A DNA stretch of 64,000 nucleotides from Amphiscolops sp. MND2022. Taxonomy: Eukaryota. Position numbers and translations under genes: made by a program. The DNA lies in the NCBI GenBank assembly GCA_964187785.1, contig OZ076409.1, positions 16,556,001 through 16,620,000 on the forward strand, written 5' to 3'. Below, in pieces: positions 648-61,223 of the stretch. Positions within the stretch are counted from its first letter, which is position 1. Each line of letters begins with the position of its first letter. Below the pieces are notes generated by a model. The model saw only the letters and a list, made by a program, of their open reading frames with translations, was not told where the DNA came from and did not search any database.

Positions 648-756
648 AGCCTAATTGTTGTGATAAACTTATTAAATAGGTAAGTATTCCAACCCTATTG
701 ATAAGTTTTATTTGAAAGCAGACTGCGAAAGTGGTCTGCTGCCCAATTTTTTGAAC
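648..756 (+). ncRNA. Putative spliced-leader (SL) RNA gene, representative copy; 3' end approximate
   Basis: AT-rich exon 648-679 ending AG; donor GTAAGT at 680; stem AAACTTATTAAATAGG/CCTATTGATAAGTTT enclosing the donor; hairpin AGCAGACTGC-GAAA-GTGGTCTGCT 717-740; Sm site AATTTTTTGA 745-754; linked to 5S. Other uninterrupted starts: 6617, 7522, 8427, 9332, 10237, 11142, 12047, 12952, 19872, 20777, 21682, 22587, 23492, 24397, 25302, 26207, 28126, 29031, 29936, 30841, 31746, 32651, 33556, 34461, 41218, 42123, 43028, 43933, 44838, 45743, 51630, 52535, 53440, 54344, 55249, 61901, 62806, 63711. Confidence 0.85.
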
Positions 757-875: not shown

Positions 876-994
876 GGCTACGACCATACCATGTTGAATG
901 CACCGGTTCTCGTCCGATCACCGAAGTTAAACAACATAGGGCCTGGTTAGTACTTGGATGGGAGACCGCTTGGGAACACCAGGTGTTGTAGCCT
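876..994 (+). rRNA. 5S rRNA
   Basis: GGCTACGACCATACC...CTCGTCCGATCACCGAAGTTAA...GTTAGTACTTGGATGGGAGACC...GTGTTGTAGCCT; 119 nt, paired ends, T6 terminator. Confidence 0.98.
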
Positions 995-1594: not shown

Positions 1595-2486
1595 GGTATG
1601 GCCGGTGCGAGACGACCGAACCTACAGATTCTACCCGTGCAATGTCAGCATCAAGATTCAAAATGCCCTGCCCAATCTGACTAACGAAGAAATCAAGAAC
1701 GAACTGAAACTACCCGAAGGCATTACTGCGAACGACGACTTGAACTTCAAAACAGTCAGCATTGGGCCGTACATGAAAGTCTTTGATGGAACAGCGACAA
1801 TCTCTGCCACTGTTCAATCTGCCGAGCAAATGGAAGAAATGAAAAACTGGTCGCGCAAATCTTTCTTTGAAGAAAAACAAGTTAGAAATCAAGTGACTCA
1901 GATGTATGCTCCTAACATCATGACATGTACTTTCTGTGAAAAGAAAGGCTCCTTCTACAGAGGTCATGATGACACTTGGTGCACAAAGAAAACGAAAGAA
2001 GAACGCGAACTGGAAAAAAAAGCGAAGGCGATCGAAGACGAAGGCGACGTCTTCACAGCCGACGAACAAAGTGTACACAACGAACAAATCGCAAAAATCA
2101 GAAACGACAGCTGTGCATCAACATCAAGCAGAAATAATAAAAGACGACGCAGCACACCAAAGCGCGCCAACTCGGAAAAAAACCCACGACTCAGTGCGAG
2201 ACAGCGAACCAGCCAAATACCAAAGATGAAAGCAAAAGCTCAAAATGAGAACAAACCCGAACAGAAAGAAAGTACAAGTCAAACTGCAAACAACAACAGT
2301 GATAACAATGACGAGAATGAAGAACAAGATACCACAAGCACGAAGAACGCAGATACCGAAAACAGATTGCCGAAACCGCTGAACATGAGAGATTTTGTGG
2401 ATGCAATGAATCCAATCCATCACATAGAAACAAATGAAACAACAAACAACAACGTCAACGAAACAAACAATACGAAGACGAAATGA
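1595..2486 (+). pseudogene. 5'-truncated ORF1 of A1
   Basis: Matches the C-terminal ~295 aa of the 397-aa ORF1 at 56577; lacks the start codon. Confidence 0.9.
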
Positions 2487-5400
2487 CGATGCCCAACATT
2501 GTTAGTTTCAATTGTAGGGGTCTTGGCAATCCCTTGAAACTCACAAGCCTAATTGCAAATACTGACATCAACAATGACGTCATTGCAATTCAAGAAACTA
2601 AAATGAAAAAACTAAAGAAAAAACATTTGAAAATACTCGAGTCCTACGACCTGAATTACGTAATCAGCCCATGCGACAAATCAAAAGCGGGCGGCCTGCT
2701 GCTTTTGTTCAAAGCAAAACATAACGTAGAGCTGGTTACCCAAAACAAGTCTTTTCAAATTATAAAGATGTCAAACCAAGCCACTGAAACAAAGATGGCC
2801 AATGTTTACATATGCCCCAGTTGGAGTATAAGCAAAATCAATGAAGAACTTGAAGACCTGAAACTCAACTTGGAATCAAAGCATCTCAGGCATATTGAAC
2901 CATGTGTAATAGTTGGTGACTTGAATTGTTTCGATGACGTCACAAGAAACAAACATCCTCAATATGCAAAACACAAAGTCATACTGAAAGCGTTTGAAAA
3001 AATGGGCTTGATGGACATGGCAGTGAAGCTTGAGAATATCGAGAACACACACTTCGCGCCAGCCCAAAAACCATCGCGCCTGGATTATATCTTCTCAAAT
3101 GTTGTGAGTCAGAAACAAGAAATCAGAACGATCAAGACATGCTTCTCAGATCACCGAATTTTGCGCCTGTCAAGCAAGCATAAGGCCGAGCAAGGTCAAA
3201 AGATCTTTAGAATGGATGACACAACTGTTGATGAAAACGTCAAAACCCTGAAAACGCTGATTTCACAAACAAATGGCTTGACCGGTGAACAGCTAGCGAA
3301 TGATGCGTATCTCACAATGAAAAATGAAATTTCCAACTTTCTAAGACAGGCTAGCATATGGAGAGCAAGAAATAACAAAGACAGACTGCTCAAGGGGCCC
3401 GACGCAGAAGCTGAGCAGAATCTTGCAAAAAGAATGCTAGCAGCAGTGAAGGTCAAATGCACTGACCTGAATGAAGGAAACTTGAAGATTGTTAAAAAGT
3501 ACTGCTCTGACAATGCAAACAACCAAAGCAACGCGATCAAGAAGCTGAAAACACAGAAAGATCGAATTGTCTCAAGTGAGAATGAGATCATAGATGAGGT
3601 TACAAAGTACTACAGTAAGCTCTACGCCAACGAACCAATTGATGAGAAGAAACAAGAGTGCCTCATCACAAACTTCAAAAAACAGATCTCTGAAGATGAA
3701 AGAGAACGTCTAACTCAGCAAATCACCCTAGACGAAATCAAAAATGCGATTGACAATCTGAACAAAGAAAGCGCGCCAGGCCCAGATGGACTCACCCCAA
3801 AACTGTTTCAAACGTTCAAAGAAGAATTCAGTCTTATGTTTCAAAAGATGTTTGAACATGCTGCAGACGGTAACAACTTACCAATGGCATTCAACCAAGC
3901 CTTCATTAGACTACTTCCGAAAAGTGGTGATCTGACAACATTGAAGAACTGGAGACCAATAAGCCTGATCAACACTGACAGCAAGATTTTTTCAGCAGTA
4001 ATTGCAAACAGAATGAAAAGTAGCCTCCGCGAAATCATCCACCCAGATCAATGCGCATATTTGAAAGGCAGACAAATGTCAAACGCCACACTGCTACTAA
4101 AATCTCTGTGCACAAACAAAAGAATGAAAAAAACTTTGACACTAGCTGGACTCGACTTCAGCAAAGCCTTCGACAGGGTAGATCGTTCGTACTTGCTGAA
4201 ACTTATAAAACATGTGGGATTCCCTCCCAACATATACAACATGATAGAGCAACTGTACAAAGATACACGATCTAACGTTCTAGTCAACTCCTTCATCACA
4301 AGACGAATACAGCAAGAAAGAGGAGTGAAACAAGGCTGCCCAGTCTCAGCTCTTTTGTTCATCCTAGCTATTGAGCCATTGCTTGAACTACTGAGATCGT
4401 CATCGAGCCTGACTGGAATCGCAAAAGGAAAATTGAAGAAAAAAATCATTGCATATGCTGATGACGTCACAATGTTAGTTGAGAATGAAGAACAACTGAA
4501 GCAAGCAATTCAAACGGTTGAAGACTTTGGCAAAAGCACCCAATTCGCCTTGAACGCTGACAAAACGGAACAGTTTGACCTGAATCGAAGAAATGAAGAT
4601 CAAAAGATCAAACTCCTCGGTTTGTATTTGTTCAGCAACCAAAAAAGTGAAAAGCAGCACTACCAGCAACAACTGATCCAAGAAAGCGAAAGAGCAAAGA
4701 AAGTGTGTAGACCATCAATGTCGATGAAAACGAAAAGTTGCGTCATGAAAGCCTTCGTAATGCCAAAAATAGTGTTCCATGCGAAAGCCTCAAACTGTGA
4801 TCGAGCAACTTGGAAAAAAGTTCAACGAAACCTAAAACAAGGACTTCACAACAATAGGAGCAATCAGATTTCAGAACGCCTTCTTTTTCAAAGCACCAAT
4901 GAAGGCGGTGTTGGCTTCCCATGCGTGAAGACCTATGCAAGCACTTCTTTTCTGATGGATGTGTGGAGAGCAGTTTTCCACAATGACGATCACTTTATTG
5001 CACTCGAAATCAAAGAAGCAGTAGAAGACGAGAAAAGTTACGTTCACAGCAAACTGAAACAAATGAAAACGATAACGAAAGCGCGAGCGATAACTTTCAA
5101 GCGAGAACACATAGAGTTTGTGACAAGTGAAGGACTAACAAAAATCCCTGCTACTTCAAAAGCAATATACGCTTTTGCAATCCGCCGACAGCATGCAGAC
5201 TTCGTAGATGAAAGAATCATGAAAGCGGGATCAAAACTTCAAACATCACCCCAACAACTTCTGTACACACTCAAAGCAATTTGGAGAAGCAACAAATTGA
5301 ACCCTGTTCAACGAGACGTCTTCTATAATTTCAGTTTCAATCTTTACCGAGACAAAGTATTCCTCCATGCAGCTGGCTACAAGTCTGATGATGACTGTTT

Positions 5401-5650
5401 CCTTTGCGGAACAAGTAAACAAACACATGAGCATCTGATCCTAGATTGTCAAAAAACAAAGCAGATTGCTGAAACCCTTGGAATTCGCAGCATGAAAGAT
5501 CTGTACCAGCAGGCAGAACAAGACACATGGAAAAAAGTCAGATTCGTAACAACTCTGCTCATATGTTCATGGACCGACAACAAGCAAGAAGTGGAACAAA
5601 TGATTCACAACTTTCCCATCACTATCAAGCAAGTTGGCACAGTGGCTTAG
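2483..5650 (+). CDS. ORF2: APE endonuclease, reverse transcriptase and C-terminal CCHC finger (L1/Tx1-like), 1055 aa
   Basis: SFNCRGL, IQET, GDLN, SRLDY, SDH; PGPDG, WRPISLIN, DFSKAFD, GVKQGCP, YADD; CFLC..H..C. Confidence 0.97.
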   Translation: MTMPNIVSFNCRGLGNPLKLTSLIANTDINNDVIAIQETKMKKLKKKHLKILESYDLNYVISPCDKSKAGGLLLLFKAKHNVELVTQNKSFQIIKMSNQATETKMANVYICPSWSISKINEELEDLKLNLESKHLRHIEPCVIVGDLNCFDDVTRNKHPQYAKHKVILKAFEKMGLMDMAVKLENIENTHFAPAQKPSRLDYIFSNVVSQKQEIRTIKTCFSDHRILRLSSKHKAEQGQKIFRMDDTTVDENVKTLKTLISQTNGLTGEQLANDAYLTMKNEISNFLRQASIWRARNNKDRLLKGPDAEAEQNLAKRMLAAVKVKCTDLNEGNLKIVKKYCSDNANNQSNAIKKLKTQKDRIVSSENEIIDEVTKYYSKLYANEPIDEKKQECLITNFKKQISEDERERLTQQITLDEIKNAIDNLNKESAPGPDGLTPKLFQTFKEEFSLMFQKMFEHAADGNNLPMAFNQAFIRLLPKSGDLTTLKNWRPISLINTDSKIFSAVIANRMKSSLREIIHPDQCAYLKGRQMSNATLLLKSLCTNKRMKKTLTLAGLDFSKAFDRVDRSYLLKLIKHVGFPPNIYNMIEQLYKDTRSNVLVNSFITRRIQQERGVKQGCPVSALLFILAIEPLLELLRSSSSLTGIAKGKLKKKIIAYADDVTMLVENEEQLKQAIQTVEDFGKSTQFALNADKTEQFDLNRRNEDQKIKLLGLYLFSNQKSEKQHYQQQLIQESERAKKVCRPSMSMKTKSCVMKAFVMPKIVFHAKASNCDRATWKKVQRNLKQGLHNNRSNQISERLLFQSTNEGGVGFPCVKTYASTSFLMDVWRAVFHNDDHFIALEIKEAVEDEKSYVHSKLKQMKTITKARAITFKREHIEFVTSEGLTKIPATSKAIYAFAIRRQHADFVDERIMKAGSKLQTSPQQLLYTLKAIWRSNKLNPVQRDVFYNFSFNLYRDKVFLHAAGYKSDDDCFLCGTSKQTHEHLILDCQKTKQIAETLGIRSMKDLYQQAEQDTWKKVRFVTTLLICSWTDNKQEVEQMIHNFPITIKQVGTVA

Positions 5651-5939
5651 CCAAAGACCATGAGTCAAACAAACGAGGTTCGAACCTCTGACGGAACCAA
5701 GACACAAACATGAAAAAAACTCTTTTACCTTATTGTTTGAAAGGTAAGTATTCCAACCCTATTGATAAGTTTTATTTGAAAGCAGACTGCGAAAGTGGTC
5801 TGCTGCCCAATTTTTTGAACAAGGAACAAGCTAGTCTGCACTAACTTAAAAGTTACGCGTATTTTGACCGAGAAAATTTTCGTATCATTGTACGTAATTT
5901 TGTTGTTAAGCATATAAAGCTATTGATTTTACAATGATC

Positions 5940-13298: not shown

Positions 13299-13880
13299 TT
13301 TTTGTCAGAAATGTGGTTTAACTTCGGTGACAGTTTTGCAAAAGGGGTCAAATTGAAAAGATAGCAAAAAACGGACAACGCCATTAGAAAGAGCGTCCAA
13401 AAAAACCCCCATGCTGAAATTTTCGCCGCCATCACTTGAATTTTCATTGAGTTATGTCATTTTTACTATTTTCACAAAATGTGGTTTAACTTCGGTGACA
13501 GTTTTGCAAAAGGGGTCAAAATGAACAGATAGCAAAAAACGGACAACGGCATTGGAAAGAGGGCCCAAAATTACCCCTAAAACGTGTTTTTCACACTCCT
13601 GAGTCGACTTTTGATAATACATGGAATTTCATTTTTAAGCTTACTAATTTATGCTTTTCAGCATACATTTTCGTAATAGAGTCAAAATTTTGCTTTCTCA
13701 CAATTTTTCTGGAATATTTTTGTTTCATCAGATGTCAATAACTTGAAACGTCGTCTTTTCATGAGAATTTCTCCTCAAAACAAGTTGTTGGCTGGTAATG
13801 GTAAGTCCGTACCGCAGATAGGAGTCTCGCGCTCCAAAAATTGACTCTTTGCTTTTAGCCTAATTGTTGTGAAAGCTTTG

Positions 13881-14070
13881 ATCCCTGAAGTCTGAGCCCT
13901 AGCCCCTTCAGTGGAACAGTTGACACCTCAAATAGTTTAAAAGCCACTGCGCCAGCTGTGATTTCTCTAGATCCCTGAAGTCGAGCCCTAGCCCCTGAGG
14001 TGGATCGAAAAATCAAAGCTGAGGGAGAAACTGGCTGTATCCCTGAAGTCGAGCCCTAGCCCCTTCAGTG
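13881..14070 (+). repeat. Three copies of ATCCCTGAAGTC(T)GAGCCCTAGCCCCT in family B 5'UTR
   Basis: At ~13881, 13971 and 14039; also present in B2 at ~46672-46860. Confidence 0.9.
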
Positions 14071-14136
14071 CGATCGTTGGTGGAGACCCCCGCTTTTTGC
14101 AACTTTTTTTACCCGCTTTTTTCATAAAACCTCAAA

Positions 14137-15557
14137 ATGCCTCCTAAAAACTTCCTAGAAACAGCCTCTAGCAAAAAGAAATTTGAATCTTATAAACAAG
14201 GATCGAGAAGAAACTCAACATCAAATCTAACATCAAACATACCCAACCCTGAAGGTAAATATAACGGACCAGCTGAACGAAATCGTCTTTTGAAAGAAAA
14301 GGAAGAAGAAGAACAGAGAAAACTGAAGATTGACAAAATGATTGAAGAGACAAGGGAGGAATTTCCACCGATAGAAGGTTCCAGCAAACCACAATCACCA
14401 CAGCCTAAAAGCCAACAACAGCATGAAATACAAAACGAACAACGCCCAAAACAACAGCAGCTTCAACCTCAGCCCGACATTAGTAACAGCCAAAACAGCT
14501 ACAGTAATGCTGTCTGTAATCAAAAAACGTAGTCGTAAACAAAATCTTCCGGTTGAAAATTGTACCTCTTTTTCGCAAAGAACATTTCGAAAACAAAAAT
14601 GCCCTCGAAACTGAGATAGCAAAAGCTTATGCTGAAATCCTAAAACCATTCAAACCTCAAGTGCGAATGTACATTACAATTTCGAGAACTATTGAAGAAA
14701 AATGGGGAAAACGACTTCACATTTTACATGTAACTGCCCCTGAAGAAGCGGAAGAAGACATCGAAAACATTAAAACTAAAGGTTTACAAATAATGGGCAG
14801 AACAGTATTTCCAACTGGAGACGATTTTTACCAAGTTCGTAATAGTCAATTTCCCCGAAAAGTGTGGGTAAAGATTAACAATTTGCCGTTTCTTTGCAGC
14901 GATGAAGTTTTACTCAGTCTACTAGACCTCCCAGAAGGAGTTGAGATTAGTGAAAATGTAACAAGAGAAACGATACAAACTGAAAATGGCACCATCCACA
15001 ACGGAAAGGCTAAACTGTCAGTTGTGGTCCCAGACAGTGAAAAACTCAAAGAACTCAAACAGTGGTCTTTGGAGAAAAGTCACATTTGCGTCACAAAATG
15101 GTTCGAAATTCCGATTTATATGTCGACCCCAAGCCTGCACAAATGTGACGCTTGTGAAAAAGAAAATCGGAAATCGTACATTGGCCACGACATAGCGTGG
15201 TGCAGGGTTTTAAGGAAACCTGAAAAAACTGAGGAAGCTCCCGAAAGCTGCCAAGAAGAAACAGCGGACGAGTCACAAGCTGAACAAGAAAACGAAGTAT
15301 GGGCTGACGCACCAACAAAATCCTTTCCAAACACAAACAAAAAGAACAAGAAAAGATCGAAGTCGAAATCCAAAGAGACCACCAGCCCTGGATTGATGCA
15401 GCAGAATAAATTTCAGCTTCTTTCTACATCCAGTGACCAACCTGAAGCAATTCTAAGCGCAACGTCAACAATACAAGTCCAGCCACCAAATCCAAAGAAC
15501 CCGCAGCACCCGGAAACGCCCTGTGAAGCACCCCTGGAAAGAAGCGACCATGGATGA
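14137..15557 (+). pseudogene. ORF1 of B1, frameshifted
   Basis: A6 at 14522-14527 versus A7 in B2 splits the 473-aa ORF1 into 14137-14532 and 14553-15557; could be a homopolymer sequencing error. Confidence 0.8.
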
Positions 15558-18500
15558 AGAAATAGAAATTTTTTCAATTAATGCTAGAGGATTAGCCTCA
15601 AATAAATCAAAATTAATTGAGATTTGCAACATTGTTAAGAAAAATAAAAAACATGAAACATTTTATGTACTGATACAAGAGACTAAGCTGGAAAAAATGA
15701 AACCGGAACTTCTTAAAATAATTCAATATAACAATTTGTCTTTTCAAATAGTTCCCTCAGAAAATAAAAGTGGAGGTCTAATGATACTTTATGATAAAAA
15801 CACCGAAATAGAATTACTTGACAAGAACCAATGTTCCCTAACAATTCGAGACAAAAAATCGGATTCAATAATTATAAATACTTATGTGAATCCAAAACAG
15901 TACAATTTTCAGCCTCTCAAAGATACTATTGAAACACTAGAACTAACATGTGATCAAACTATTTATATGGGAGGTGATTTCAATGCCATCGATCCTTCAG
16001 ATATCAATGAAGAAAACAAAACGTTCAATATGACTGTAAAATCAAATGATATTCGACTATTGCGATCCAAAAAACTAATACATTTGAACTCAAGTCTCCT
16101 TCTGATAGATCTTGCGCAACTCTTACAGAATCGCCAACCAACGCATTTTGAAACACGGTCTGGAAAACAAAGCCGCATCGATTATATTTTTAGTAATAAC
16201 CAAAATCTCACCATCGAAAAAAACAGGATCGAAACATTGCCCTTTGCTTTTTCCGACCACAAATGCCTCCACCTTTTTCGAAATAGCAACTATCAGTATT
16301 CTCAAAAACTTTGGAAGCTCGATAACATTGTATTTAACTATCCGGAGAAAGTGAAGGAAATACTAGAAACATCTAAAGTCGCATCCGAAAAATTTGGGAA
16401 CATTGTGTCTTGTCATGATATCTTTAAAGCGAAATTAAGAGATCAACTAAAATACTTTAGTGCTACAAGCAGAAAGATGCTAGTGAAACAAAAAGAAAAA
16501 ATTCAGATGGATATTGAAAAACTCGAAGAAAATTGTTCTAAGGGAAATTGTTCTGACCAACAGATCAAACAGAACTTAGAGCACCTGACATGCCTCAAAA
16601 ATAATCTTCAATTGATCAAAAATGAAGAATCTGAAAATTCATTTCAACAAATCAAAAACTTCTTCAGGGAAGCCAATGATGGAAACACAAAAAATATCAA
16701 ATGCTTAGCAAAAGCCTCAAGCTTAGCTAAGGATATCAAAAAGATTGAAAAACAAGATGGATCATTCACAGAAGATCCTGACGAAATTTTAAATGAATTC
16801 AAATCTTTTTATGAGAAACTTAGCCAACCAAAATGGAAACCAACAGAAACATCCTCGAAATCTCAGGATAAATTCATTGAAAAGTTTTTTAAACAAAAAA
16901 GGAAAAGCATTGAAAACATTGAAAAATTGTTCAAAGAAACGTTGGAGGACCCCGACAACGAAATCACAGTATATGAAGTTGAAAAAGCTATCTCTAAACT
17001 GAACTCAAACAGTGCTCCTGGATCGGATGGACTTACAAGTCAATTATACCAAAACCACAAAAACTTTTTTGCCCCGTATCTTTCAAATCTATTCAATAAA
17101 ATCAATGAAAATGGAGAAGTTCCGGACTCATTTAAACATGCAATCATCAAAGTAATTCCTAAGAAGAATAATTCACTGAAGGTATCCGAATTTCGGCCAA
17201 TTAGTCTCATTAATACGGATCAAAAAATTCTTTCTCATGTTCTAGCAGAAAGACTTAAACCTATTTTATCAATATTAATTGGTAATCATCAAAACGCTCA
17301 TTTACCAAATAGAAATATACACATTGCCATACAAAAAATTCAGCATTACGCCCATGAAACTACTCGTAGTCAATCACTTATCGCTATTGACTTCAGTAAA
17401 GCTTTCGACTGTGTAGAACGTAGCTTTTTACAAAAACTGATTGAAAAAAGTCCAATCGATAAATTTACTCAAGAAATGATTTTACTTACGTACAAGGATA
17501 CTTATGCTTTCATTGGAATGAAAAATGGAATTTCCACAAAATTCAAAATAGATAGAGGGGTGAGACAAGGCTGTCCTCTCTCAGCACTGATTTTCAATCT
17601 TTGCCTCGAACCTCTTCTACAAAGAATTCAAAAATCAAAATACATAAAATCAAAACAACAAACAAAATGTATCGCCTACGCAGATGATATAACGATCAGC
17701 CTCTACAACAAATCTCTTCGGAAGCTATTGATTATATTGGATCATTTTCACGAAATAGCAGGCTTAGAAGTTAATTTAGCCAAAACTGAAATCCTTTCGA
17801 AAGCGGACAAATTATTTGTATCGGAAAAACTAACAAGAGTTACCACAACAAAAATTCTTGGAGTTTACATTTCGCTGAATAAAACTCTCAAAAAAGAAAC
17901 CAAGAACGCAATAACGAATGCTTTTAACTCAGCAGAAAAATTCATATTAAAAAATAGTTCGTTCCGCGCGAGAGCTAGAAATATTGAGACTTTTATCTAC
18001 TCGAAATTAATTCATCATCTGAGACACGAAAATTTGTACAAAAAGTTTCTTCGAAAAGTTCAATCGAAAATAATAGATGTTTTCTGGCTGTACAAAAAAC
18101 ACAATGTTAAAAAAGAAATTCTTGAGCTACCAATTGAAGAGGGCGGAGTAAACCTCAAGAACTTCTCAAAATACTACCTAACTGCCAAGATTATGAACTT
18201 GAAGTTTCTAGCGGTTAACCCAAAGGAGAGAAAATACATACAAGAATTGAAGAAATCAAAATTTTTTTCAGAATTAGAAAAACACTTCGAAAAGGAACAC
18301 ATTGAAATCCTGGAACTGAAACCAGAAGAATTTACAATCCAACATCATTTCACCACGCTTAATATAACAAAAGAAACAACTTCGAAAGAAATTTATACTT
18401 TTTTGAACAACTCCTCAATAAACGTCCCACCGTCTCTAAAAACTGAAGTCACAGCAACAAAACAAAATATAGCATCCGAAATTTTAAACTCAGTTACAAA

Positions 18501-18876
18501 GAACATCTGGAAAAACAAAAAACTCACTTCGTTTGATAAAAACTATCTTTACTGCTTCCTAATGAACTCGTATCTAGATAAACAGGACAAGTGGCTTAAA
18601 AATCTTGTTCTCCAACCACTATGTTTCGCATGTGAAGCAGAATTTGAAACATGGGACCATTTAATGTTTTCGTGTAAAAAATTGAAAACGTTAACAATGA
18701 AGTTAAACGTTTTTTCATGGAAGGAAATATGGCTTGATCGAAGTTGTCTCTCTCGAAAACTCCTTGTAGCAATAATGCTCTCGTCGTGGACGGAATCAAT
18801 TGGAGACTACTTAAAATATTTTCTAGAACGAATGAAAGTAATACTAATACCAGTTGCAAATCTATCTGATAATTGA
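15550..18876 (+). CDS. ORF2 of B1: APE, RT and CCHC finger
   Basis: ATG at 15550 (MDEEIEIFSINARGL) as in B2; IQET, GGDFN, SRIDY, SDH, PGSDG, DFSKAFD, GVRQGCP, YADD, CFAC..H..C. Confidence 0.97.
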   Translation: MDEEIEIFSINARGLASNKSKLIEICNIVKKNKKHETFYVLIQETKLEKMKPELLKIIQYNNLSFQIVPSENKSGGLMILYDKNTEIELLDKNQCSLTIRDKKSDSIIINTYVNPKQYNFQPLKDTIETLELTCDQTIYMGGDFNAIDPSDINEENKTFNMTVKSNDIRLLRSKKLIHLNSSLLLIDLAQLLQNRQPTHFETRSGKQSRIDYIFSNNQNLTIEKNRIETLPFAFSDHKCLHLFRNSNYQYSQKLWKLDNIVFNYPEKVKEILETSKVASEKFGNIVSCHDIFKAKLRDQLKYFSATSRKMLVKQKEKIQMDIEKLEENCSKGNCSDQQIKQNLEHLTCLKNNLQLIKNEESENSFQQIKNFFREANDGNTKNIKCLAKASSLAKDIKKIEKQDGSFTEDPDEILNEFKSFYEKLSQPKWKPTETSSKSQDKFIEKFFKQKRKSIENIEKLFKETLEDPDNEITVYEVEKAISKLNSNSAPGSDGLTSQLYQNHKNFFAPYLSNLFNKINENGEVPDSFKHAIIKVIPKKNNSLKVSEFRPISLINTDQKILSHVLAERLKPILSILIGNHQNAHLPNRNIHIAIQKIQHYAHETTRSQSLIAIDFSKAFDCVERSFLQKLIEKSPIDKFTQEMILLTYKDTYAFIGMKNGISTKFKIDRGVRQGCPLSALIFNLCLEPLLQRIQKSKYIKSKQQTKCIAYADDITISLYNKSLRKLLIILDHFHEIAGLEVNLAKTEILSKADKLFVSEKLTRVTTTKILGVYISLNKTLKKETKNAITNAFNSAEKFILKNSSFRARARNIETFIYSKLIHHLRHENLYKKFLRKVQSKIIDVFWLYKKHNVKKEILELPIEEGGVNLKNFSKYYLTAKIMNLKFLAVNPKERKYIQELKKSKFFSELEKHFEKEHIEILELKPEEFTIQHHFTTLNITKETTSKEIYTFLNNSSINVPPSLKTEVTATKQNIASEILNSVTKNIWKNKKLTSFDKNYLYCFLMNSYLDKQDKWLKNLVLQPLCFACEAEFETWDHLMFSCKKLKTLTMKLNVFSWKEIWLDRSCLSRKLLVAIMLSSWTESIGDYLKYFLERMKVILIPVANLSDN

Positions 18877-18966
18877 AGATATGATGCGATTCTAATCTAA
18901 TAAATTCCATATTGATCTTTTGTAAAAAAAGGGTTGATATTATTCATGATTAATTGAATTTTTGAA

Positions 18967-22814: not shown

Positions 22815-22933
22815 GGCTACGACCATACCATGTTGAATGCACCGGTTCTCGTCCGATCACCGAAGTTAAACAACATAGGGCCTGGTTAGTACTTGGATGG
22901 GAGACCGCTTGGGAACACCAGGTGTTGTAGCCT
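22815..22933 (+). rRNA. 5S rRNA
   Basis: As 876-994. Confidence 0.98.
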
Positions 22934-23719
22934 TTTTTGTCAGAAATGTGGTTTAACTTCGGTGACAGTTTTGCAAAAGGGGTCAAATTGAAAAGATAGC
23001 AAAAAACGGACAACGCCATTAGAAAGAGCGTCCAAAAAAACCCCCATGCTGAAATTTTCGCCGCCATCACTTGAATTTTCATTGAGTTATGTCATTTTTA
23101 CTATTTTCACAAAATGTGGTTTAACTTCGGTGACAGTTTTGCAAAAGGGGTCAAAATGAACAGATAGCAAAAAACGGACAACGGCATTGGAAAGAGGGCC
23201 CAAAATTACCCCTAAAACGTGTTTTTCACACTCCTGAGTCGACTTTTGATAATACATGGAATTTCATTTTTAAGCTTACTAATTTATGCTTTTCAGCATA
23301 CATTTTCGTAATAGAGTCAAAATTTTGCTTTCTCACAATTTTTCTGGAATATTTTTGTTTCATCAGATGTCAATAACTTGAAACGTCGTCTTTTCATGAG
23401 AATTTCTCCTCAAAACAAGTTGTTGGCTGGTAATGGTAAGTCCGTACCGCAGATAGGAGTCTCGCGCTCCAAAAATTGACTCTTTGCTTTTAGCCTAATT
23501 GTTGTGATAAACTTATTAAATAGGTAAGTATTCCAACCCTATTGATAAGTTTTATTTGAAAGCAGACTGCGAAAGTGGTCTGCTGCCCAATTTTTTGAAC
23601 AAGGAACAAGCTAGTCTGCACTAACTTAAAAGTTACGCGTATTTTGACCGAGAAAATTTTCGTATCATTGTACGTAATTTTGTTGTTAAGCATATAAAGC
23701 TATTGATTTTACAATGATC

Positions 23720-27155: not shown

Positions 27156-27250
27156 TTTTTGGAGTATATCTTGCCTGTTTGAGGTGTGAGTCGCAGCAAT
27201 CATAGGTCCAAAACCAGTAACCAAAAACCAACCTGTACTTACTGTTTGAA
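27156..27250 (+). mobile_element. 95-bp insertion D at SL splice donor (3' end of a fourth family, or a non-autonomous element)
   Basis: TSD AGGTAAGTATTCCA at 27142-27155 and 27251-27264; unit is 109 bp longer (95+14); ends CTTACTGTTTGAA. Confidence 0.9.
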
Positions 27251-34807: not shown

Positions 34808-35596
34808 TTTTTGTCAGAAATGTGGTTTAACTTCGGTGACAGTTTTGCAAAAGGGGTCAAATTGAAAAGATAGCAAAAAACGGACAACGCCATTAGAAAG
34901 AGCGTCCAAAAAAACCCCCATGCTGAAATTTTCGCCGCCATCACTTGAATTTTCATTGAGTTATGTCATTTTTACTATTTTCACAAAATGTGGTTTAACT
35001 TCGGTGACAGTTTTGCAAAAGGGGTCAAAATGAACAGATAGCAAAAAACGGACAACGGCATTGGAAAGAGGGCCCAAAATTACCCCTAAAACGTGTTTTT
35101 CACACTCCTGAGTAGACTTTTGATAATACATGGAATTTCATTTTTAAGCTTACTAATTTATGCTTTTCAGCATACATTTTCGTAATAGAGTCAAAATTTT
35201 GCTTTCTCACAATTTTTCTGGAATATTTTTGTTTCATCAGATGTCAATAACTTGAAACGTCGTCTTTTCATGAGAATTTCTCCTCAAAACAAGTTGTTGG
35301 CTGGTAATGGTAAGTCCGTACCGCAGATAGGAGTCTCGCGCTCCAAAAATTGACTCTTTGCTTTTAGCCTAATTGTTGTTCACGCGTCGGTTGGTTAGTT
35401 ATCTTTGACTTTTGACTTCTGATTGTGAAAAACTTTTTTGACGAGTTTTTAACACATAGTACCGCTAAAACTATAGAAGTTTAACGAAAAAATTGTTTAT
35501 TTGGGTTTATACCCCTTTGCACTTTACCCCCTCTGGGTTTATACCCCCCCCTTGGGTTTATACTCCCTTTTGGATAGAGGATAGGAAAACGACTTC

Positions 35597-36928
35597 ATGA
35601 TTCTTGACGACGATGTTGCTTCTGGTAATGTGGACGTAACAAAAATGCCGATGGATGGTCACGACAATACTGAATATATTCCACCTATTGAAAGCCTCAG
35701 CCTTGTTCAATTGTCGGAGCAATCGCAATCTGGGTCTCCGTCACTTACACCACCACCAACATCTTCTCTACAGAACATACAATCGGCAATAAACACGCAA
35801 TTATACAGCGCTGTTGCAGGTGCCAACACTCCACCATCTCGCACGACAGCAATAGTTAAAATGAAAATCATTCCACCATTACAAAAACAACACTTCACAA
35901 CCAAGGACAACTTCACTACTGCAACCAATCAATGTTTTTCAGCAATTTTACGTTGCTTTCCACCTACATACAGACAACAGCTTACTATTTCAAAATCATT
36001 TACAATTGTTGGGACCAGACATTTGCATTCAATTAATGTAGTGGCGCCTGTCACAGCCCAGGACATTGTATCAAAATTGCAAACAACAGGAATATCAATG
36101 CTTGGCAAAACTGTATTTCCATCGACAGACAACTTTCTCACTAATTTACCTGGACTCTATCCACGATACACTCAAGTGAGACTTCTACATGCACCAGCAC
36201 AATGCGATGACGAGACCTTAACAGAACTATTACATCTTCCGGCAGATACGACAATCATAGGATTCAAACGTCAGACAGACACGATTGATGGTATGTCCTT
36301 TTTCAATGGCAAAATAGCATGCACGATAAAAATCAACAATACAACTCATGAAGAAGAACTACGACAATGGTCGTTGGATCAACATGAAAATCCCACAATG
36401 ATTTGGGAGGAGATTCCTATCTTTGCTTTTATTCCCTCACTTCACAATTGCACTTTCTGTAAACAACATAACAAACCTCACTTTGGACATGACATTGCCT
36501 GGTGCAAACATGCAAAAGCACATCCAACGACTCCACCATCACCTCCTCTACCACAACAGACATCAACTACAACTTCGCAGATGCCTCTGCCTCCTCCTTC
36601 TTCTTCTGCTACTCCATCTGTTATCGCGCCAACTCCTCCTACTTTGGTTAACAACAACTTGGGTTTAGCTGACGTACCTGTTACAACGACTGATGATTGG
36701 CAACCTGTAACTAAGAAGACTTTCCCTAAACACAGTTTGGTTAGAACGAGGTCTGTTATCAAGGCGAAAAGACCAAAACACCCGAGCCCTGTAACTGAAG
36801 TTAACCCCAATTTGACAGAACCTACGATGACGGCACCGTTCCTTCCGACTACACCCATTTACAATTCATTTGACAGCAAGCGGTATTCTAAATCTTCCAG
36901 GTCTAAACATGATAGTGTTCAGCCTTAA
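35597..36928 (+). CDS. ORF1 of C, 443 aa, nucleic-acid-binding protein with CCHC motif
   Basis: CTFCKQHNKPHFGHDIAWC; motifs shared with ORF1 of B (KIIPP/KIVPP, GKTVFP/GRTVFP, LRQWSL/LKQWSL). Confidence 0.9.
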   Translation: MILDDDVASGNVDVTKMPMDGHDNTEYIPPIESLSLVQLSEQSQSGSPSLTPPPTSSLQNIQSAINTQLYSAVAGANTPPSRTTAIVKMKIIPPLQKQHFTTKDNFTTATNQCFSAILRCFPPTYRQQLTISKSFTIVGTRHLHSINVVAPVTAQDIVSKLQTTGISMLGKTVFPSTDNFLTNLPGLYPRYTQVRLLHAPAQCDDETLTELLHLPADTTIIGFKRQTDTIDGMSFFNGKIACTIKINNTTHEEELRQWSLDQHENPTMIWEEIPIFAFIPSLHNCTFCKQHNKPHFGHDIAWCKHAKAHPTTPPSPPLPQQTSTTTSQMPLPPPSSSATPSVIAPTPPTLVNNNLGLADVPVTTTDDWQPVTKKTFPKHSLVRTRSVIKAKRPKHPSPVTEVNPNLTEPTMTAPFLPTTPIYNSFDSKRYSKSSRSKHDSVQP

Positions 36929-39900
36929 TTGTAGAGGACTGAAGGATCCTCTTCGCCTTGCCATGACTCTGACTGCTTGTCAGCGTCATGGTGTGAAAAA
37001 TTTTGTTCTTTTCCTACAAGAAACTAAGATTTCTGAATTTTCTATCAATCATAGAAAACTACTTACACAACACCATCTCTCGTACTGCATGGTTCCTGCC
37101 TCTGATACTGCAGGTGGATTGGTGACAATTTTTCCGTCTTCTTTCCACATAACTTACCGTTTTAACAATGAATCCATGCTCCTATTGCGTTTTCAAGAAT
37201 ATAATATCACTTTTAGCAACTGTTATGTCAATCCGCTTGATTTTCATCTGGAAAAGCTTAATCATGGTTTCCAACAGCTTTCTCTTCTATCTTCTAGTTC
37301 TCACATACTTGGTGGAGATTTTAACTGTTTATCAACCCGTGCTGACACATCTAATGTTAATATTCGAAGTAATGATTTCCGCTTACTTCGTTTTCGAAAA
37401 CTTATGAATCTTATGCACCTGCTGGATGTCACACCATGTGCTCCAGCCTCGGTTGCACATCTGTTCACACACTATGATAAAAGGTATAATACATTTAGTC
37501 GTTTAGACTACTTTTTTACATCGAGTGTTGACTTCTCTCTCGAAACTGAAGTCATTCCTTTTTCGGATCACAAGTTAATTAAGCTTTGTGAAGCGGCATC
37601 TTTTACTCCAGCAAACAGTCATTGGAAATTAAATGACAACATTCTGCAGTATCACCATGCAGTGCGGGAGGTTTTGGTGAGTTCTATTGCATCCCGGTCT
37701 ACGGATTCAGAGTGTATCCTATCGAACTATGATGTCATTAAAAATCTTGTTAGGGATAAACTCCGTATCTTTTGTATCCAGAATCATAGACGTAATCTTT
37801 TTGAAGAAAATCACCTGAAAGAACTAATACTTGATGCAGAGAAATATCTACAAATTTTTGGCGTAGATTCCAAAACTATTTCTCGTCTTTCAGATTTAAA
37901 TAAAAAATTGATGGAACTCCAGCACCAGAATGCTCGTAAATGCCTTAAACAGGTGAAAATGTTTTATGTTGATGCCAATCATGGTGATCCTCAAGTTATT
38001 AAAAAACACCTTTCAAATATGAGAAAATCCGTACATATTTCTCAAATACAAGACGACAATGGTGAGGTCTTGACTACTGATGAGCAGATTTTTGAAGCTT
38101 TTCATATGCATTACTCAGATCGTTTTTCCATTCCGCAGGTCAATATCAATAATGATTCCCATGTCAAGCAGCTGCAAGATGACATTATTGGTACTTTTTG
38201 TAGTGTTAAGAGATCTGATATTGAAAATATTCGCACTCTAACCAGAGACCGGGATATGATTAGTGAACAAGAAGTTATTAATGCCATTAACAAATTGAAT
38301 TCTGAAAGTGCTCCTGGTCCTGATGGCCTCACTTCCAACTTTTATAAAGCTCATCAGGAGGTTCTGAGTCCTCTACTCTGCAGGCTGTTTAACCAGATGG
38401 TTACTGATGGTTGGATGCCGCTATCTTTCTCCAGAGCCATTATAAAACTGATTCCTAAAAAACCCAACGCCAATCGTGTTGAAGATTTTCGTCCCATCAG
38501 TCTTATTAATACAGACCAAAAAATACTCTCTCATATTTTGTCGGAACGAGTTCGCATTCCTGTTGATAAGCTTATTGGTCCCCACCAATCTGCTTATCTT
38601 CCTGGGCGTCACATACACCCTTCTTTATTGAAAGTCTCCTTAAACTTGGAAACCATGCCGTCAAATAATTCTCTCATCGCTATTGATTTTAGCAAAGCCT
38701 TTGATAAACTAAGTCGAACATTTATCTTTGCGTTATTAGAAAAAATTGGCTTGCACGAAAACACAGTCAAATTGATTCGCATCATGTATATGCATAATAT
38801 TGCCTATCTTGACATCAATGGTCAACTCTCTCAACCTGTTCTTATGGAAAATGGAGTTAGGCAAGGCTGCCCTTTATCCGCGCTCATTTTTATTCTAGGC
38901 ATTGAACCCCTTCTTCATGCAATTCAGCACTCCTTCAACATTAGATCGGATATGCCGTTTAAAATTATCTCGTATGCGGATGATCTTACTTGTGGTATTC
39001 ACACTGATAATATTCAAGATCTTTTTGATATCATTGATACATTTTCTGGCGTTACGAATTTATCTGTTAATCAATCTAAAACTGAAATTCTTACATTGAG
39101 TAGTCTTCGTCCTCCTCTCCAATCTTGTGACGTTGTTAAAATACTGGGTGTTCACTTTAGTTTGGGCAACTCTGCTAGACCTTTCTCTGACTTCATGAAC
39201 TATGCGCAACGAAGTGGTCAGTATTGTAACAAATACAATACTCTAATAGCTCGTGCGCGAAATATTCATACCTTTGTTATGCAAAAATTAGTTCATGAAA
39301 TTCGCCATCTTTATGTCCTAAGGCCTCAATTAGACAAAATTGATAGTATTTTCATTGATGCTATTTGGCTTGGCCGCAAACACAATCTAAGTAAATTTAT
39401 TCTCCAGAGACCATGGTCGGCGATGGGTATTGGTCTTCGGAATTTCCGTCAAACTATTGTTTCTTCCAAAATTATCGACTGCTTCAACTTTCTCTACGAA
39501 AACAGTTTGCCCGATAATCTTAAACTGTTACTCCAATCTAGGTTTTTTAGAAATCTTAAATCCTTGTGTCGCACATTTAAATGCTCCATTTCCTTTCCAA
39601 ACTCCACCACCTGTACTCTTTCTATTGATGACCGTCAACTTGTGATTTCCACCCCTCTTCCCACTAAAAAAATTTATCATTTTCTTACAGACCGGTCAAC
39701 TTCGGCAGCTTTTTGCCGAATCTCTAGTATGGCAGAGAAATTATCTGTTCCTGCTTTTTCTATCTTTTCCTTCATCCGTCACTTGTGGAAGCATCCCTCG
39801 TATGCTGCTTTTGAGAAAAATTATTTATATCTGTTTTTCCTTAATTGCTACTTAGAGAAAACCAAAAAACAAGATTTGGGCTTAGTGTTTTCAGCTCATT

Positions 39901-40160
39901 GCTGTTTTTGTGGTGTTGAAGACGAAACCTTCTCACATCTTATTACTGAATGTCAGCATATTCCATCTCTCAATTTCTTTAAAACTCCTAGTGATTGCTG
40001 TCTAGATTTTCAAAACATGAATGCAATTTACCCTTTCAAACGTCTGATAGCTCTCCTAATTTCCTCATGGAGCGAAGATCCGCTCAGATTCTCTAAGTAT
40101 TTTTTGAATTGTGTCTCCTTAAGGCATCCAACCATTCTTAACCATCAGGCTGTAACGTAA
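36909..40160 (+). CDS. ORF2 of C: APE, RT and CCHC finger
   Basis: ATG at 36909 (MIVFSLNCRGL); LQET, GGDFN, SRLDY, SDH, PGPDG, DFSKAFD, GVRQGCP, YADD, CCFC..H..C. Confidence 0.96.
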   Translation: MIVFSLNCRGLKDPLRLAMTLTACQRHGVKNFVLFLQETKISEFSINHRKLLTQHHLSYCMVPASDTAGGLVTIFPSSFHITYRFNNESMLLLRFQEYNITFSNCYVNPLDFHLEKLNHGFQQLSLLSSSSHILGGDFNCLSTRADTSNVNIRSNDFRLLRFRKLMNLMHLLDVTPCAPASVAHLFTHYDKRYNTFSRLDYFFTSSVDFSLETEVIPFSDHKLIKLCEAASFTPANSHWKLNDNILQYHHAVREVLVSSIASRSTDSECILSNYDVIKNLVRDKLRIFCIQNHRRNLFEENHLKELILDAEKYLQIFGVDSKTISRLSDLNKKLMELQHQNARKCLKQVKMFYVDANHGDPQVIKKHLSNMRKSVHISQIQDDNGEVLTTDEQIFEAFHMHYSDRFSIPQVNINNDSHVKQLQDDIIGTFCSVKRSDIENIRTLTRDRDMISEQEVINAINKLNSESAPGPDGLTSNFYKAHQEVLSPLLCRLFNQMVTDGWMPLSFSRAIIKLIPKKPNANRVEDFRPISLINTDQKILSHILSERVRIPVDKLIGPHQSAYLPGRHIHPSLLKVSLNLETMPSNNSLIAIDFSKAFDKLSRTFIFALLEKIGLHENTVKLIRIMYMHNIAYLDINGQLSQPVLMENGVRQGCPLSALIFILGIEPLLHAIQHSFNIRSDMPFKIISYADDLTCGIHTDNIQDLFDIIDTFSGVTNLSVNQSKTEILTLSSLRPPLQSCDVVKILGVHFSLGNSARPFSDFMNYAQRSGQYCNKYNTLIARARNIHTFVMQKLVHEIRHLYVLRPQLDKIDSIFIDAIWLGRKHNLSKFILQRPWSAMGIGLRNFRQTIVSSKIIDCFNFLYENSLPDNLKLLLQSRFFRNLKSLCRTFKCSISFPNSTTCTLSIDDRQLVISTPLPTKKIYHFLTDRSTSAAFCRISSMAEKLSVPAFSIFSFIRHLWKHPSYAAFEKNYLYLFFLNCYLEKTKKQDLGLVFSAHCCFCGVEDETFSHLITECQHIPSLNFFKTPSDCCLDFQNMNAIYPFKRLIALLISSWSEDPLRFSKYFLNCVSLRHPTILNHQAVT

Positions 40161-40312
40161 CTAAGTTCAATTTTATTTATATCTTGCAACCAATGAACCA
40201 TTCACTTACTTTGATTAGCTACTGAATTGTCTGAATTATGAACTTGGTCATGACCTACGCTATTTGATTGATTCATTTGTTCCTACTGATTTACTGTAAT
40301 TAATTCTTTAAA

Positions 40313-46663: not shown

Positions 46664-49600
46664 AAGCTTTGATCCCTGAAGTCTGAGCCCTAGCCCCTTC
46701 AGTGGAACAGTTGACACCTCAAATAGTTTAAAAGCCACTGCGCCAGCTGTGATTTCTCTAGATCCCTGAAGTCGAGCCCTAGCCCCTGAGGTGGATCGAA
46801 AAATCAAAGCTGAGGGAGAAACTGGCTGTATCCCTGAAGTCGAGCCCTAGCCCCTTCAGTGCGATCGTTGGTGGAGACCCCCGCTTTTTGCAACTTTTTT
46901 TTTACCCGCTTTTTTCATAAAACCTCAAAATGCCTCCTAAAAACTTCCTAGAAACAGCCTCTAGCAAAAAGAAATTTGAATCTTATAAACAAGGATCGAG
47001 AAGAAACTCAACATCAAATCTAACATCAAATATACCCAACCCTGAAGGTAAATATATCGGACCAGCTGAACGAAATCGTCTTTTGAAAGAAAAGGAAGAA
47101 GAAGAACAGAGAAAACTGAAGATTGACAAAATGATTGAAGATACAAGAGAAGAATTTCCACCGTTAGAAGGTTCCAGCAAACCACAATCACCACAGCCTA
47201 AAAGCCAACAACAGCATGAAATACAAAACGAACAACGCCCAAAACAACAGCAGCCTCAACCTCAGCCCGACATTAGTAACAGTCAAAACAGCTACAGTAA
47301 TGTTGTCTGTAATCAAAAAAACGTAGTCGTTAACAAAATCTTCCGATTGAAAATTGTACCTCCTTTTCGCAAAGAACATTTCGAAAACAAAAATGCCCTC
47401 GAAACTGAGATAGCAAAAGCTTATGCTGAAATCCTAAAACCATTCAAACCTCAAGTGCGAATGTACATTACAATTTCGAGAACTTTTGAAGAAAAATGGG
47501 GAAAACGACTTCACATTTTACATGTAACTGCCCCTGAAGAAGCGGAAGAAGACATCGAAAACATTAAAACTAAAGGTTTACAAATAATGGGCAGAACAGT
47601 ATTTCCAACTGGAGACGATTTTTACCAAGTTCGTAATAGTCAATTTCCCCGGAAAGTGTGGGTAAAGATTAACAATTTGCCGTTTCTTTGCAGCGATGAA
47701 GTTTTACTCAGTCTACTAGACCTCCCAGAAGGAGTTGAGATTAGTGAAAATGTAACAAGAGAAACGATACAAACTGAAAATGGCACCATCCACAACGGAA
47801 AGGCAAAACTGTCAGTTGTGGTCCCAGACAATGAAAAACTCAAAGAACTCAAACAGTGGTCTTTGGAGAAAAGTCACATTTGCGTCACAAAATGGTTCGA
47901 AATTCCGATTTATATGTCGACCCCAAGCCTGCACAAATGTGACGCTTGTGAAAAAGAAAATCGGAAATCGTACATTGGCCACGACATAGCGTGGTGCAGG
48001 GTTTTAAGGAAACCTGAAAAAACTGAGGAAGCTCCCGAAAGCTGCCAAGAAGAATCAGCGGACGAGTCACAAGCTGAACAAGAAAACGAAGTATGGGCTG
48101 ACGCACCAACAAAATCCTTTCCAAACACAAACAAAAAGAACAAGAAAAGATCGAAGTCGAAATCCAAAGAGACCACCAGCCCTGGATTGATGCAGCAGAA
48201 TAAATTTCAGCTTCTTTCTACATCCAGTGACCAACCTGAAGCAGTTCTAAGCGCAACGTCAACAATACAAATCCAGCCACCAAATCCAAAGAACCCGCAG
48301 CACCCGGAAACGCCCTGTGAAGCACCCCTAGAAAGAAGCGACCATGGATGAAGAAATAGAAATTTTTTCAATTAATGCTAGAGGGTTAGCCTCAAATAAA
48401 TCAAAATTAATTGAGATTTGCAACATTGTTAAGAAAAATAAAAAACATGAAACATTTTATGTACTGATACAAGAGACTAAGCTGGAAAAAATGAAACCGG
48501 AACTTCTTAAAATAATTCAATATAACAATTTGTCTTTTCAAATAGTTCCCTCAGAAAATAAAAGTGGAGGTCTAATGATACTTTATGATAAAAACACCGA
48601 AATAGAATTACTTGACAAGAACCAATGTTCCCTAACAATTCGAGACAAAAAATCGGATTCAATAATTATAAATACTTATGTGAATCCAAAACAGTACAAT
48701 TTTCAGCCTCTCAAAGATACTATTGAAACACTAGAACTAACATGTGATCAAACTATTTATATGGGAGGTGATTTCAATGCCATCGATCCTTCAGATATCA
48801 ATGAAGAAAACAAAACGTTCAATATGACTGTAAAATCAAATGATATTCGACTATTGCGATCCAAAAAACTAATACATTTGAACTCAAGTCTCCTTTTGAT
48901 AGATCTTGCGCAACTCTTACAGAATCGCCAACCAACGCATTTTGAAACACGGTCTGGAAAACAAAGCCGCATCGATTATATTTTTAGTAATAACCAAAAT
49001 CTCACCATCGAAAAAAACAGGATCGAAACATTGCCCTTTGCTTTTTCCGACCACAAATGCCTCCACCTTTTTCGAAATAGCAACTATCAGTATTCTCAAA
49101 AACTTTGGAAGCTCGATAACATTGTATTTAACTATCCGGAGAAAGTGAAGGAAATACTAGAAACATCTAAAGTCGCATCCGAAAAATTTGGGAACATTGT
49201 GTCTTGTCATGATATCTTTAAAGCGAAATTAAGAGATCAACTAAAATACCTTAGTGCTGCAAGCAGAAAGATGCTAGTGAAACAAAAAGAAAAAATTCAG
49301 ATGGATATTGAAAAACTTGAAGAAAATGGTTCTAAAGGAAATTGTTCTGACCAACAGCTCAAACAGAACTTAGAGCACCTGACATGCCTCAAAAATAATC
49401 TTCAATTGATCAAAAATGAAGAATCTGAAAATTCATTTCAACAAATCAAAAACTTCTTCAGGGAAGCCAATGATGGAAACACAAAAAATATCAAATGCTT
49501 AGCAAAAGCCTCAAGCTTAGCTAAGGATATCAAAAAGATTGAAAAACAAGATGGATCATTCACAGAAGATCCTGACGAAATTTTAAATGAATTCAAATCT

Positions 49601-55595: not shown

Positions 55596-56576
55596 TTTTT
55601 GTCAGAAATGTGGTTTAACTTCGGTGACAGTTTTGCAAAAGGGGTCAAATTGAAAAGATAGCAAAAAACGGACAACGCCATTAGAAAGAGCGTCCAAAAA
55701 AACCCCCATGCTGAAATTTTCGCCGCCATCACTTGAATTTTCATTGAGTTATGTCATTTTTACTATTTTCACAAAATGTGGTTTAACTTCGGTGACAGTT
55801 TTGCAAAAGGGGTCAAAATGAACAGATAGCAAAAAACGGACAACGGCATTGGAAAGAGGGCCCAAAATTACCCCTAAAACGTGTTTTTCACACTCCTGAG
55901 TCGACTTTTGATAATACATGGAATTTCATTTTTAAGCTTACTAATTTATGCTTTTCAGCATACATTTTCGTAATAGAGTCAAAATTTTGCTTTCTCACAA
56001 TTTTTCTGGAATATTTTTGTTTCATCAGATGTCAATAACTTGAAACGTCGTCTTTTCATGAGAATTTCTCCTCAAAACAAGTTTTTGGCTGGTAATGGTA
56101 AGTCCGTACCGCAGATAGGAGTCTCGCGCTCCAAAAATTGACTCTTTGCTTTTAGCCTAATTGTTGTGATAAACTTATTAAAAAGTCCTTTTAATAAGTT
56201 TGCTTGTACATCATTCGGTTAAGCAACCCATAGCTCTGTGCTATCATTCAAACTACCATTTTACAAACCCGTCGTGAAGCACCTAAGAAGCCATTCTTTC
56301 CTACGGGGGTCGCTGGCTAAGGTTTGATCTGCGTGGATTTTTTTCCAACCGGCTCGTGTGTGGTCGCGTTAGTAGATCAAGCTGAGAAACGGAGACTGGT
56401 GCTTCCCAGCGTATTCGTGAGGTTGCGCTGAAGCTTTCTTGGCGGTCGGCTGGCAGGAGCCCTCAATAAACTGCCAGTTGTCCCAGCAGAGCTCTTCACA
56501 GCTGGCAGTGATAGATGCTCTGTTTCCCCCTAAAAACAAAACAACTCTTTCCCTTTTATTTCAACTGAACTGAAGA

Positions 56577-60934: not shown

Positions 60935-61223
60935 CCAAAGACCATGAGTCAAACAAACGAGGTTCGAACCTCTGACGGAACCAAGACACAAACATGAAAA
61001 AAACTCTTTTACCTTATTGTTTGAAAGGTAAGTATTCCAACCCTATTGATAAGTTTTATTTGAAAGCAGACTGCGAAAGTGGTCTGCTGCCCAATTTTTT
61101 GAACAAGGAACAAGCTAGTCTGCACTAACTTAAAAGTTACGCGTATTTTGACCGAGAAAATTTTCGTATCATTGTACGTAATTTTGTTGTTAAGCATATA
61201 AAGCTATTGATTTTACAATGATC

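Follow-up and report, generated by a model that had tools for sequence, protein, structure and literature searches.

Linkage between spliced-leader (SL) and 5S rRNA genes has been treated as a general phenomenon (PMC10946416), and one described example is the C. elegans 5S rDNA-SL1 cluster, which has over 100 tandem units, roughly 1 kb long and with one 5S and one SL gene apiece (PMC12803116). Among acoels, the leader of Symsagittifera roscoffensis has been derived from unmapped 5' ends of transcripts, with 10,433 genes (30.2%) reported as trans-spliced (PMC9911081; bioRxiv 10.1101/2022.08.27.505549). The preprint describes multiple SL genes in that species, with a conserved region of approximately 100 bp (bioRxiv 10.1101/2022.08.27.505549).

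Retrotransposons are associated with SL systems in several ways. NeSL of nematodes and SLACS/CRE of trypanosomatids, which encode a restriction-like endonuclease, insert sequence-specifically into multicopy SL genes (PMC4640811, PMC8869645). Full-length CR1 RNAs of Hydra are reported to carry the SL (bioRxiv 10.1101/2024.03.13.584568), and retrogenes have been described in dinoflagellates (PMC5585692). LINEs that combine an apurinic-type endonuclease with a multicopy small-RNA gene target are described in the Tx1 clade, including Keno (U2 snRNA) and Mutsu (5S).

The stretch of DNA analyzed here (the window; 64,000 nucleotides) is a tandem array with one 5S and one SL gene per unit, as in C. 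elegans. The two genes are opposed in C. elegans (PMC12803116), whereas here they lie on the same strand, in tandem, and there are more than 1100 copies in at least three chromosomal arrays, in contrast to the >100 units of the nematode. A text search with the leader led to the preprint and the G3 paper on the S. roscoffensis genome, whose SL is the same over 31 nt as the leader in the window. The C. elegans SL1 leader differs in sequence from the acoel one. The leader is absent from the main text of the SLIDR paper, and it matches none of the chaetognath leaders shown in print.

We consider it very probable that the locus is a working acoel SL RNA array of 905-bp 5S + SL units, producing an RNA of about 110 nt that is likely bound by Sm proteins and donates 32 nt to AG acceptors, and that L1/Tx1-like LINEs insert into it at two exact sites and are likely transcribed from the SL promoter. 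The earlier note on this DNA had proposed an SL gene in an animal lineage outside the ones it listed. That lineage is Acoela, as placed by the eIF2A protein of the host genome, for which the best named match is the acoel Convolutriloba macropyga (70% identical; other named matches ≤39%). As a trans-splicing lineage it is not new, the same leader having been published for an acoel in 2022. The SL gene, the leader and acoel trans-splicing are thus known biology, and the additions are the linkage to 5S rRNA and the associations with LINEs.

Anatomy of the SL gene and its linkage to 5S rRNA

The SL exon occupies 648..679 of the + strand (A648-G679; 32 nt, numbered SL +1 to +32) and on inspection contains no ATG. 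Relative to this exon, the published S. roscoffensis SL (649-679 with an added A) begins one base downstream and has one more A at its 3' end, whereas dispersed genomic copies here set the ends at A648 and G679. The splice donor GTAAGTAT (680..687, +), preceded by AG, follows the exon directly, with its GT within predicted stem-loop I; both leader-joined copies and the loose ends of RNA contigs depart from the gene after 679. With the Sm site kept unpaired in the fold, and with array copies too nearly identical for a covariation test, stem I is predicted to pair 665-680 with 694-708 (stem-loop I, 665..708, +), so that the splice junction sits at the top of this stem; stem II is predicted to pair 717-726 with 731-740 (stem-loop II, 717..740, +), closed by a GAAA tetraloop. 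An unconstrained fold of 650-760 has a free energy of -28.2 kcal/mol (z -3.78; 0/200 shuffles equally stable), and stem-loop II alone has a z of -4.32 (0/200 shuffles). An Sm-type motif in the intron part, AATTTTTTGA at 745..754 (+), is identified by sequence and is single-stranded by the same standard; it reads AAT6GA here and AAT5GA, AAT5CGA or AAT4CGA in other copies. Among 5000 shuffled units, 13 contain a donor with an Sm motif after it, and the fold of the SL gene region contains no stable third hairpin.

These are the features that the earlier note had described: an ATG-free exon with an AG-preceded donor at the top of stem I, all present at 648-687, then a GNRA-capped stem II, an Sm site and no third hairpin. 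Its start at 648 is likewise borne out by the dispersed copies, 39 of the 70 examined reaching exactly +1 or 1–4 bases beyond. It had called the gene unannotated, which holds for Rfam, as a search of the window returned 46 5S genes only, with no SL model at gathering score and no snRNA match; it does not hold for the literature, where the leader is published for S. roscoffensis. Of the RNA length it proposed (~110-130 nt), the lower end probably stands and the range up to 130 nt probably does not. The predicted SL RNA is probably ~107–111 nt long, since RNA contigs from relatives stop matching at 758 and the published conserved region is ~100 bp. By analogy with other SL systems, Pol II would transcribe the SL gene from the upstream spacer, the RNA would receive a trimethyl cap and would likely be bound by Sm proteins, and its first 32 nt would be donated to the AG acceptors of pre-mRNAs.

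The 5S rRNA gene lies at 876..994 (+; Rfam RF00001, 117.5 bits), and a T6 run of the sort found at Pol III terminators comes next (994-999). Because the 5S gene starts 121 bases past the Sm site and ends in this T6 run, a joint SL-5S transcript made by Pol III is unlikely; the 5S gene would be transcribed separately by Pol III, as in other SL systems.

The array fills the window with 46 5S rRNA genes (Rfam) and 45 copies of the leader, all on the + strand; 44 leader copies are exact and one has a single mismatch, compared to 0 expected by chance from shuffles. The repeat unit is 905 bp (reference unit 22815..23719, +), and uninterrupted copies are 0–4 bases off the commonest one. Co-repetition of the SL gene with a same-strand 5S gene, the central claim of the earlier note, is therefore what the window contains. 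Genome-wide, the array spacer precedes 1235 of 1242 exact matches to the 5' end of the window's 5S gene, a count that would miss 5S genes of other sequence, and exact copies of leader, donor and intron number 1137. Arrays are present on three contigs (C1, C12, and C13) and on small contigs. The distance from stem II to the 5S start downstream of it is 160 bp in 75 of 85 copies at 20 loci from C12, C13, and small contigs; nine of the other ten have no downstream 5S within the locus, and one has it farther away. Leader, donor and both stems are the same across arrays and intact in 41 window copies. The Sm site varies by array, with T6 or T5C in the window and T5 further up C1; among 60 uninterrupted copies listed for the C12, C13, and small-contig loci, 54 have T4C.

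Unit length varies too. The spacer at 99-430 holds a diverged internal repeat of ~169 bp, and the unit lengths of 736, 905, and 1074 bp, met with across the window and the arrays of C12, C13, and small contigs, correspond to one, two or three copies of it.

SL/5S linkage in acoels was not found in the literature searched, with subscription journals outside its range, and the SL figure for S. roscoffensis might show flanking genes. The S. roscoffensis main texts (PMC9911081; bioRxiv 10.1101/2022.08.27.505549) contain no mention of 5S rRNA or of non-LTR elements, and the text of the G3 supplement, figures aside, does not mention 5S.

The leader joined to other sequences

The last 22 nt of the leader match 1948 places in the genome; 1137 of these continue into an intact intron, and 629 lack the following G. 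Of the 629, we examined 70, namely the first 30 in the list and a selection of 40 among the 70 that come after those. The leader match reaches A648 or 1–4 bases further in 39 of them and is shorter in the others. What follows the leader is diverse: the 70 sites form 39 sequence clusters with different ORFs, and LINE ORF1-like sequence is present at 52, as judged with queries drawn from the same set. Such genomic retrocopies give the exact ends of a leader without RNA data.

One site (L021), the only host-gene retrocopy among the 70, is an intronless copy of eIF2A headed by the leader (Pfam eIF2A, E 2e-51). Its parent gene on contig C4 is 99% identical and contains two GT-AG introns that are absent from the copy, and a pyrimidine tract ending in TTTCAG stands in the parent immediately before base 1 of the copy. 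The fetched parent locus contains no leader, and beside the copy there is neither a poly(A) run of at least 8 nor a target duplication. We conclude that the copy is a fossil of a trans-spliced eIF2A mRNA. Dinoflagellate retrogenes, which reportedly bear relict leaders, are similar in that leader-bearing cDNAs re-enter the genome. Joining at AG acceptors is also seen among the dispersed copies. In one LINE family, one set of copies (L031/L032) has the leader joined 27 nt further in than in L006/L011, after TTTTCAG, and in another pair (L035 vs. L049) the joint is shifted 6 nt to the next AG. The earlier note had suggested looking for the leader joined to mRNAs at genomic AG acceptors, and this is now supplied by the eIF2A retrocopy and its parent, as well as by the published RNA-seq analysis of S. 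roscoffensis.

A search of public reads listed 19 runs, the best containing 0.31 of the sampled words and none reaching half. For four of these runs, one of them of other than known type, contigs were compared with region 600-860. Within that region, RNA contigs of two biofilm metatranscriptomes cover 642-758 only, and those of an oligo-dT run cover 642-681 only, i.e., the leader. Across the three RNA runs, from two studies, the contigs carry different loose ends after 679-681, although contigs in RNA libraries can be DNA and cannot show RNA ends. Two of the loose ends could not be matched exactly anywhere in this genome, so the runs probably contain relatives, and no RNA of this species itself was seen.

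Several other explanations deserve consideration. That LINE ORF1-like sequence follows so many dispersed leaders would agree with an origin of the 32-mer as a retrotransposon or SINE 5' end, in which case the array would be a transposon-derived satellite rather than a set of SL genes. However, the 32-mer heads 39 clusters with different ORFs, one with a gag presumably of BEL/Pao type (L027), and is identical to a published SL, and a host eIF2A exon joined at its acceptor contradicts such an origin, to which we give practically no weight. It would be just as surprising if the gene were another Sm-class snRNA whose donor-like sequence arose by chance: Sm site and stems are common to snRNAs and SL RNAs, but Rfam finds no snRNA match, joining falls exactly at the donor, and the idea is again contradicted by the published SL and the eIF2A retrocopy.

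Somewhat less improbable, though still unlikely, is that the copies in the window, a part of the C1 array, are silent passengers of the 5S repeat, with functional SL RNA coming from the C12 and C13 arrays, which mostly have another Sm variant. The differences in Sm site between arrays (T6/T5C, T5, T4C) point in this direction, and the RNA contigs could not be traced to any one array; yet the leader, donor and both stems do not differ across arrays, the window retains them intact in its 41 copies, and SL RNAs of Hydra use both AAUUUUGA and AAUUUUCG as Sm sites. A working SL RNA array is the reading we retain below.

LINEs inserted in the SL gene

All six insertions in the window sit in the SL gene, on the + strand, and five encode an apurinic-type endonuclease and a reverse transcriptase (RT; Pfam). 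Two stand before or at SL +31: a 5'-truncated L1/Tx1-like LINE of family A/E (1595..5741; 13–14 bp target duplication) and a 95-bp non-coding element (27156..27250; 14-bp target duplication) whose last 8 bases match the A/E end. Inserted before SL +1 are L1/Tx1-like LINEs of family B/D (13873..18966; 16-bp target duplication) and family C (35380..40312; 14-bp target duplication). A second B/D copy (46664..50724) lacks its 3' kilobase and still ends precisely at SL +1; this points to priming at an internal position of the RNA or to a deletion that came afterwards. The sixth insertion is a full-length A/E LINE (56183..61025), seamless with SL +1..+29 (56154-56182) and with the donor displaced to its 3' side.

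Walking back from 213 copies of stem II (taken from 264 kb of array on C1 plus 20 loci outside it), we found 139 without insertion, 35 that break at +1, 35 at +31 and four elsewhere or at a locus edge. One of the breaks at +31 is a 1-nt deletion variant, the +31 count is inflated because the C12 and C13 loci were chosen around A/E ends, and homogenization or amplification of array copies means that insertions are not independent events. The 3' end of A/E occurs 35 times in the genome, in three chromosomal clusters and on five small contigs, and each of the 23 ends that we retrieved from outside C1 abuts the same SL sequence; the end of family C occurs 18 times, and the eight on C1 are all inside the array. 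Two further long families use SL +1/+31 too, along with non-autonomous elements of 95–113 bp and 1.4–2.9 kb, with target duplications mostly of 12–19 bp. The survey that gave these further elements left over ten units, with a missing anchor, a variant 5S merging two units, spacer variants or degraded copies.

Near the start of the C1 array (G000:C1:16229000-16370000), most units carry an insertion. The chief one is an element of 1.98 kb that sits at +1, is flanked by target duplications of 18 bp and has no match to the LINEs of the window.

The SL-targeting LINEs have two ORFs, with an N-terminal Exo_endo_phos domain, RVT_1, and a weak zf-RVT in A, C, and E (Pfam). ORF2 identity between families A/E, B/D, and C is only 25–33%. 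Against solved structures, the A/E ORF2 scores 207 bits with human L1 ORF2p and at most 110 bits with R2. Together with this score, the apurinic-type endonuclease, two ORFs, target specificity and target duplications, as in the Tx1 clade, classify these elements by sequence as L1/Tx1-like. Site-specific insertion in SL genes is shared with NeSL and SLACS/CRE. The acoel elements differ from these in having an N-terminal apurinic-type endonuclease, RT and a C-terminal zinc knuckle, shortly after which ORF2 ends with no restriction-like endonuclease following the RT; the system also differs in its two sites, several families and non-autonomous partners. Unlike Keno (U2 snRNA) and Mutsu (5S), they target the SL gene. 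In the literature searched, with subscription journals and Repbase reports outside its range, we found no Tx1-type family and no LINE with an apurinic-type endonuclease that targets SL genes. A literature search for a link between NeSL and the SL1 promoter also returned nothing.

The heads of family A/E suggest how its copies might be transcribed. The leader to +29 precedes 15 of 17 full-length heads; in 11 of the 15 the junction is seamless and the SL promoter region, represented by four upstream variants, lies before it, and the other four have an extra leader copy after other sequence, outside the promoter context. As an extra leader copy can come only from an RNA template, A/E RNA likely starts at SL +1. 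In this model the SL promoter would drive transcription, and the RNA would read TTATTAAA-AAGTCC. In a fold of the joined test sequence, the predicted pairing of the first bases of A/E with the leader resembles that of the intron in stem I, and an RNA without donor would re-form stem I through its own 5' sequence. The 5' joining of A/E may occur by pairing of the cDNA end with the target, and insertions at +1 would separate an intact SL body from its promoter. The notion that all full-length A/E copies lack a target duplication was dropped, as two of the 17 heads follow duplicated intron sequence and four carry the extra leader.

Dispersed LINEs headed by the leader

Those of the 629 dispersed leader copies that we examined mostly head LINEs other than the array families, with (TAC)n, (TC)n or (TAA)n tails. 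One young family is 3.76 kb long, with >99% identity between copies, a (TAC)n tail and an endonuclease-RT ORF2; its ORF1 is PHD-like at 23.4 bits, just below the cut-off of 24. A PHD-finger ORF1, an apurinic-type endonuclease with RT, and a short tandem-repeat 3' tail are traits of the CR1 group, and the ORF2 of the dispersed LINEs scores only 74 bits with L1 ORF2p. Of 53 heads in the 3.76-kb family, all of the first 30 carry the leader (20 of them complete and exact), and none of these is leaderless. Whereas in Hydra CR1 RNAs are trans-spliced, here it is the genomic copies that have the leader at their start. At 15 of 16 dispersed LINE loci we found no convincing target duplication, and the remaining one (L083) has a single 12-bp case. 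Genome-wide leader-headed LINEs were not encountered in the literature searched, again exclusive of subscription journals and Repbase reports.

Their RNAs could come from an unseen master copy with an outron, or the AG of each copy's leader could serve as the next acceptor. We slightly favor the latter, as no leaderless head was seen and the leader shifts to inner AGs.

Other observations concern the sequence next to the leader. In several LINE families (L041, L012, L006, L025, L035; 56183-56205 in the window), a stretch complementary to the leader follows it, up to 19 nt long, and pairing between the two would form a hairpin resembling SL stem I. A complement of at least 8 nt in the first 60 bases is present in 7 of 39 cluster representatives, some of the seven related to each other, vs. 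12 of 312 control windows. TTTCAG or TTTCCG stands directly after the leader in 35 of 70 copies (L006-L075), TTTCAG being the host acceptor in the eIF2A gene; such a second acceptor, 6 nt further in and either unused or disabled, may guide the spliceosome to the AG of the leader. At G000:C1:32227374-32230396 (L027), a partial leader heads an ORF with DUF1759, presumably the domain typical of BEL/Pao LTR retrotransposon gag. Two loci (L089, C1:95113400; L090, C1:11035600) belong to a leader-headed LINE lineage with an extra first ORF beginning MV(H/Y)VIGASSL. This ORF has no Pfam match, and its beginning resembles an SGNH esterase start.

Taken as a whole, the SL system might feed two retrotransposon life-styles, a proposal we advance tentatively and with slightly less than even confidence. 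L1/Tx1-like LINEs would cut the SL gene at +1 or +31, and transcription from the SL promoter would provide them with a capped leader in cis, with A/E dropping the donor and rebuilding stem I. CR1-like LINEs without a promoter of their own would use the AG of the leader as a fresh trans-splice acceptor, renewing themselves, and the spliceosome would cut an exact, capped element RNA from any read-through transcript.

SL/5S linkage in Acoela is one more independent case for asking why these two genes keep joining. SL-specific LINEs with an apurinic-type endonuclease would mean that SL targeting has another origin in addition to NeSL and SLACS, and they are a natural set of endonucleases with two neighboring specificities. 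With hundreds of leader-headed LINE copies in one genome, it becomes testable whether trans-splicing replaces the usual internal promoter of LINEs.
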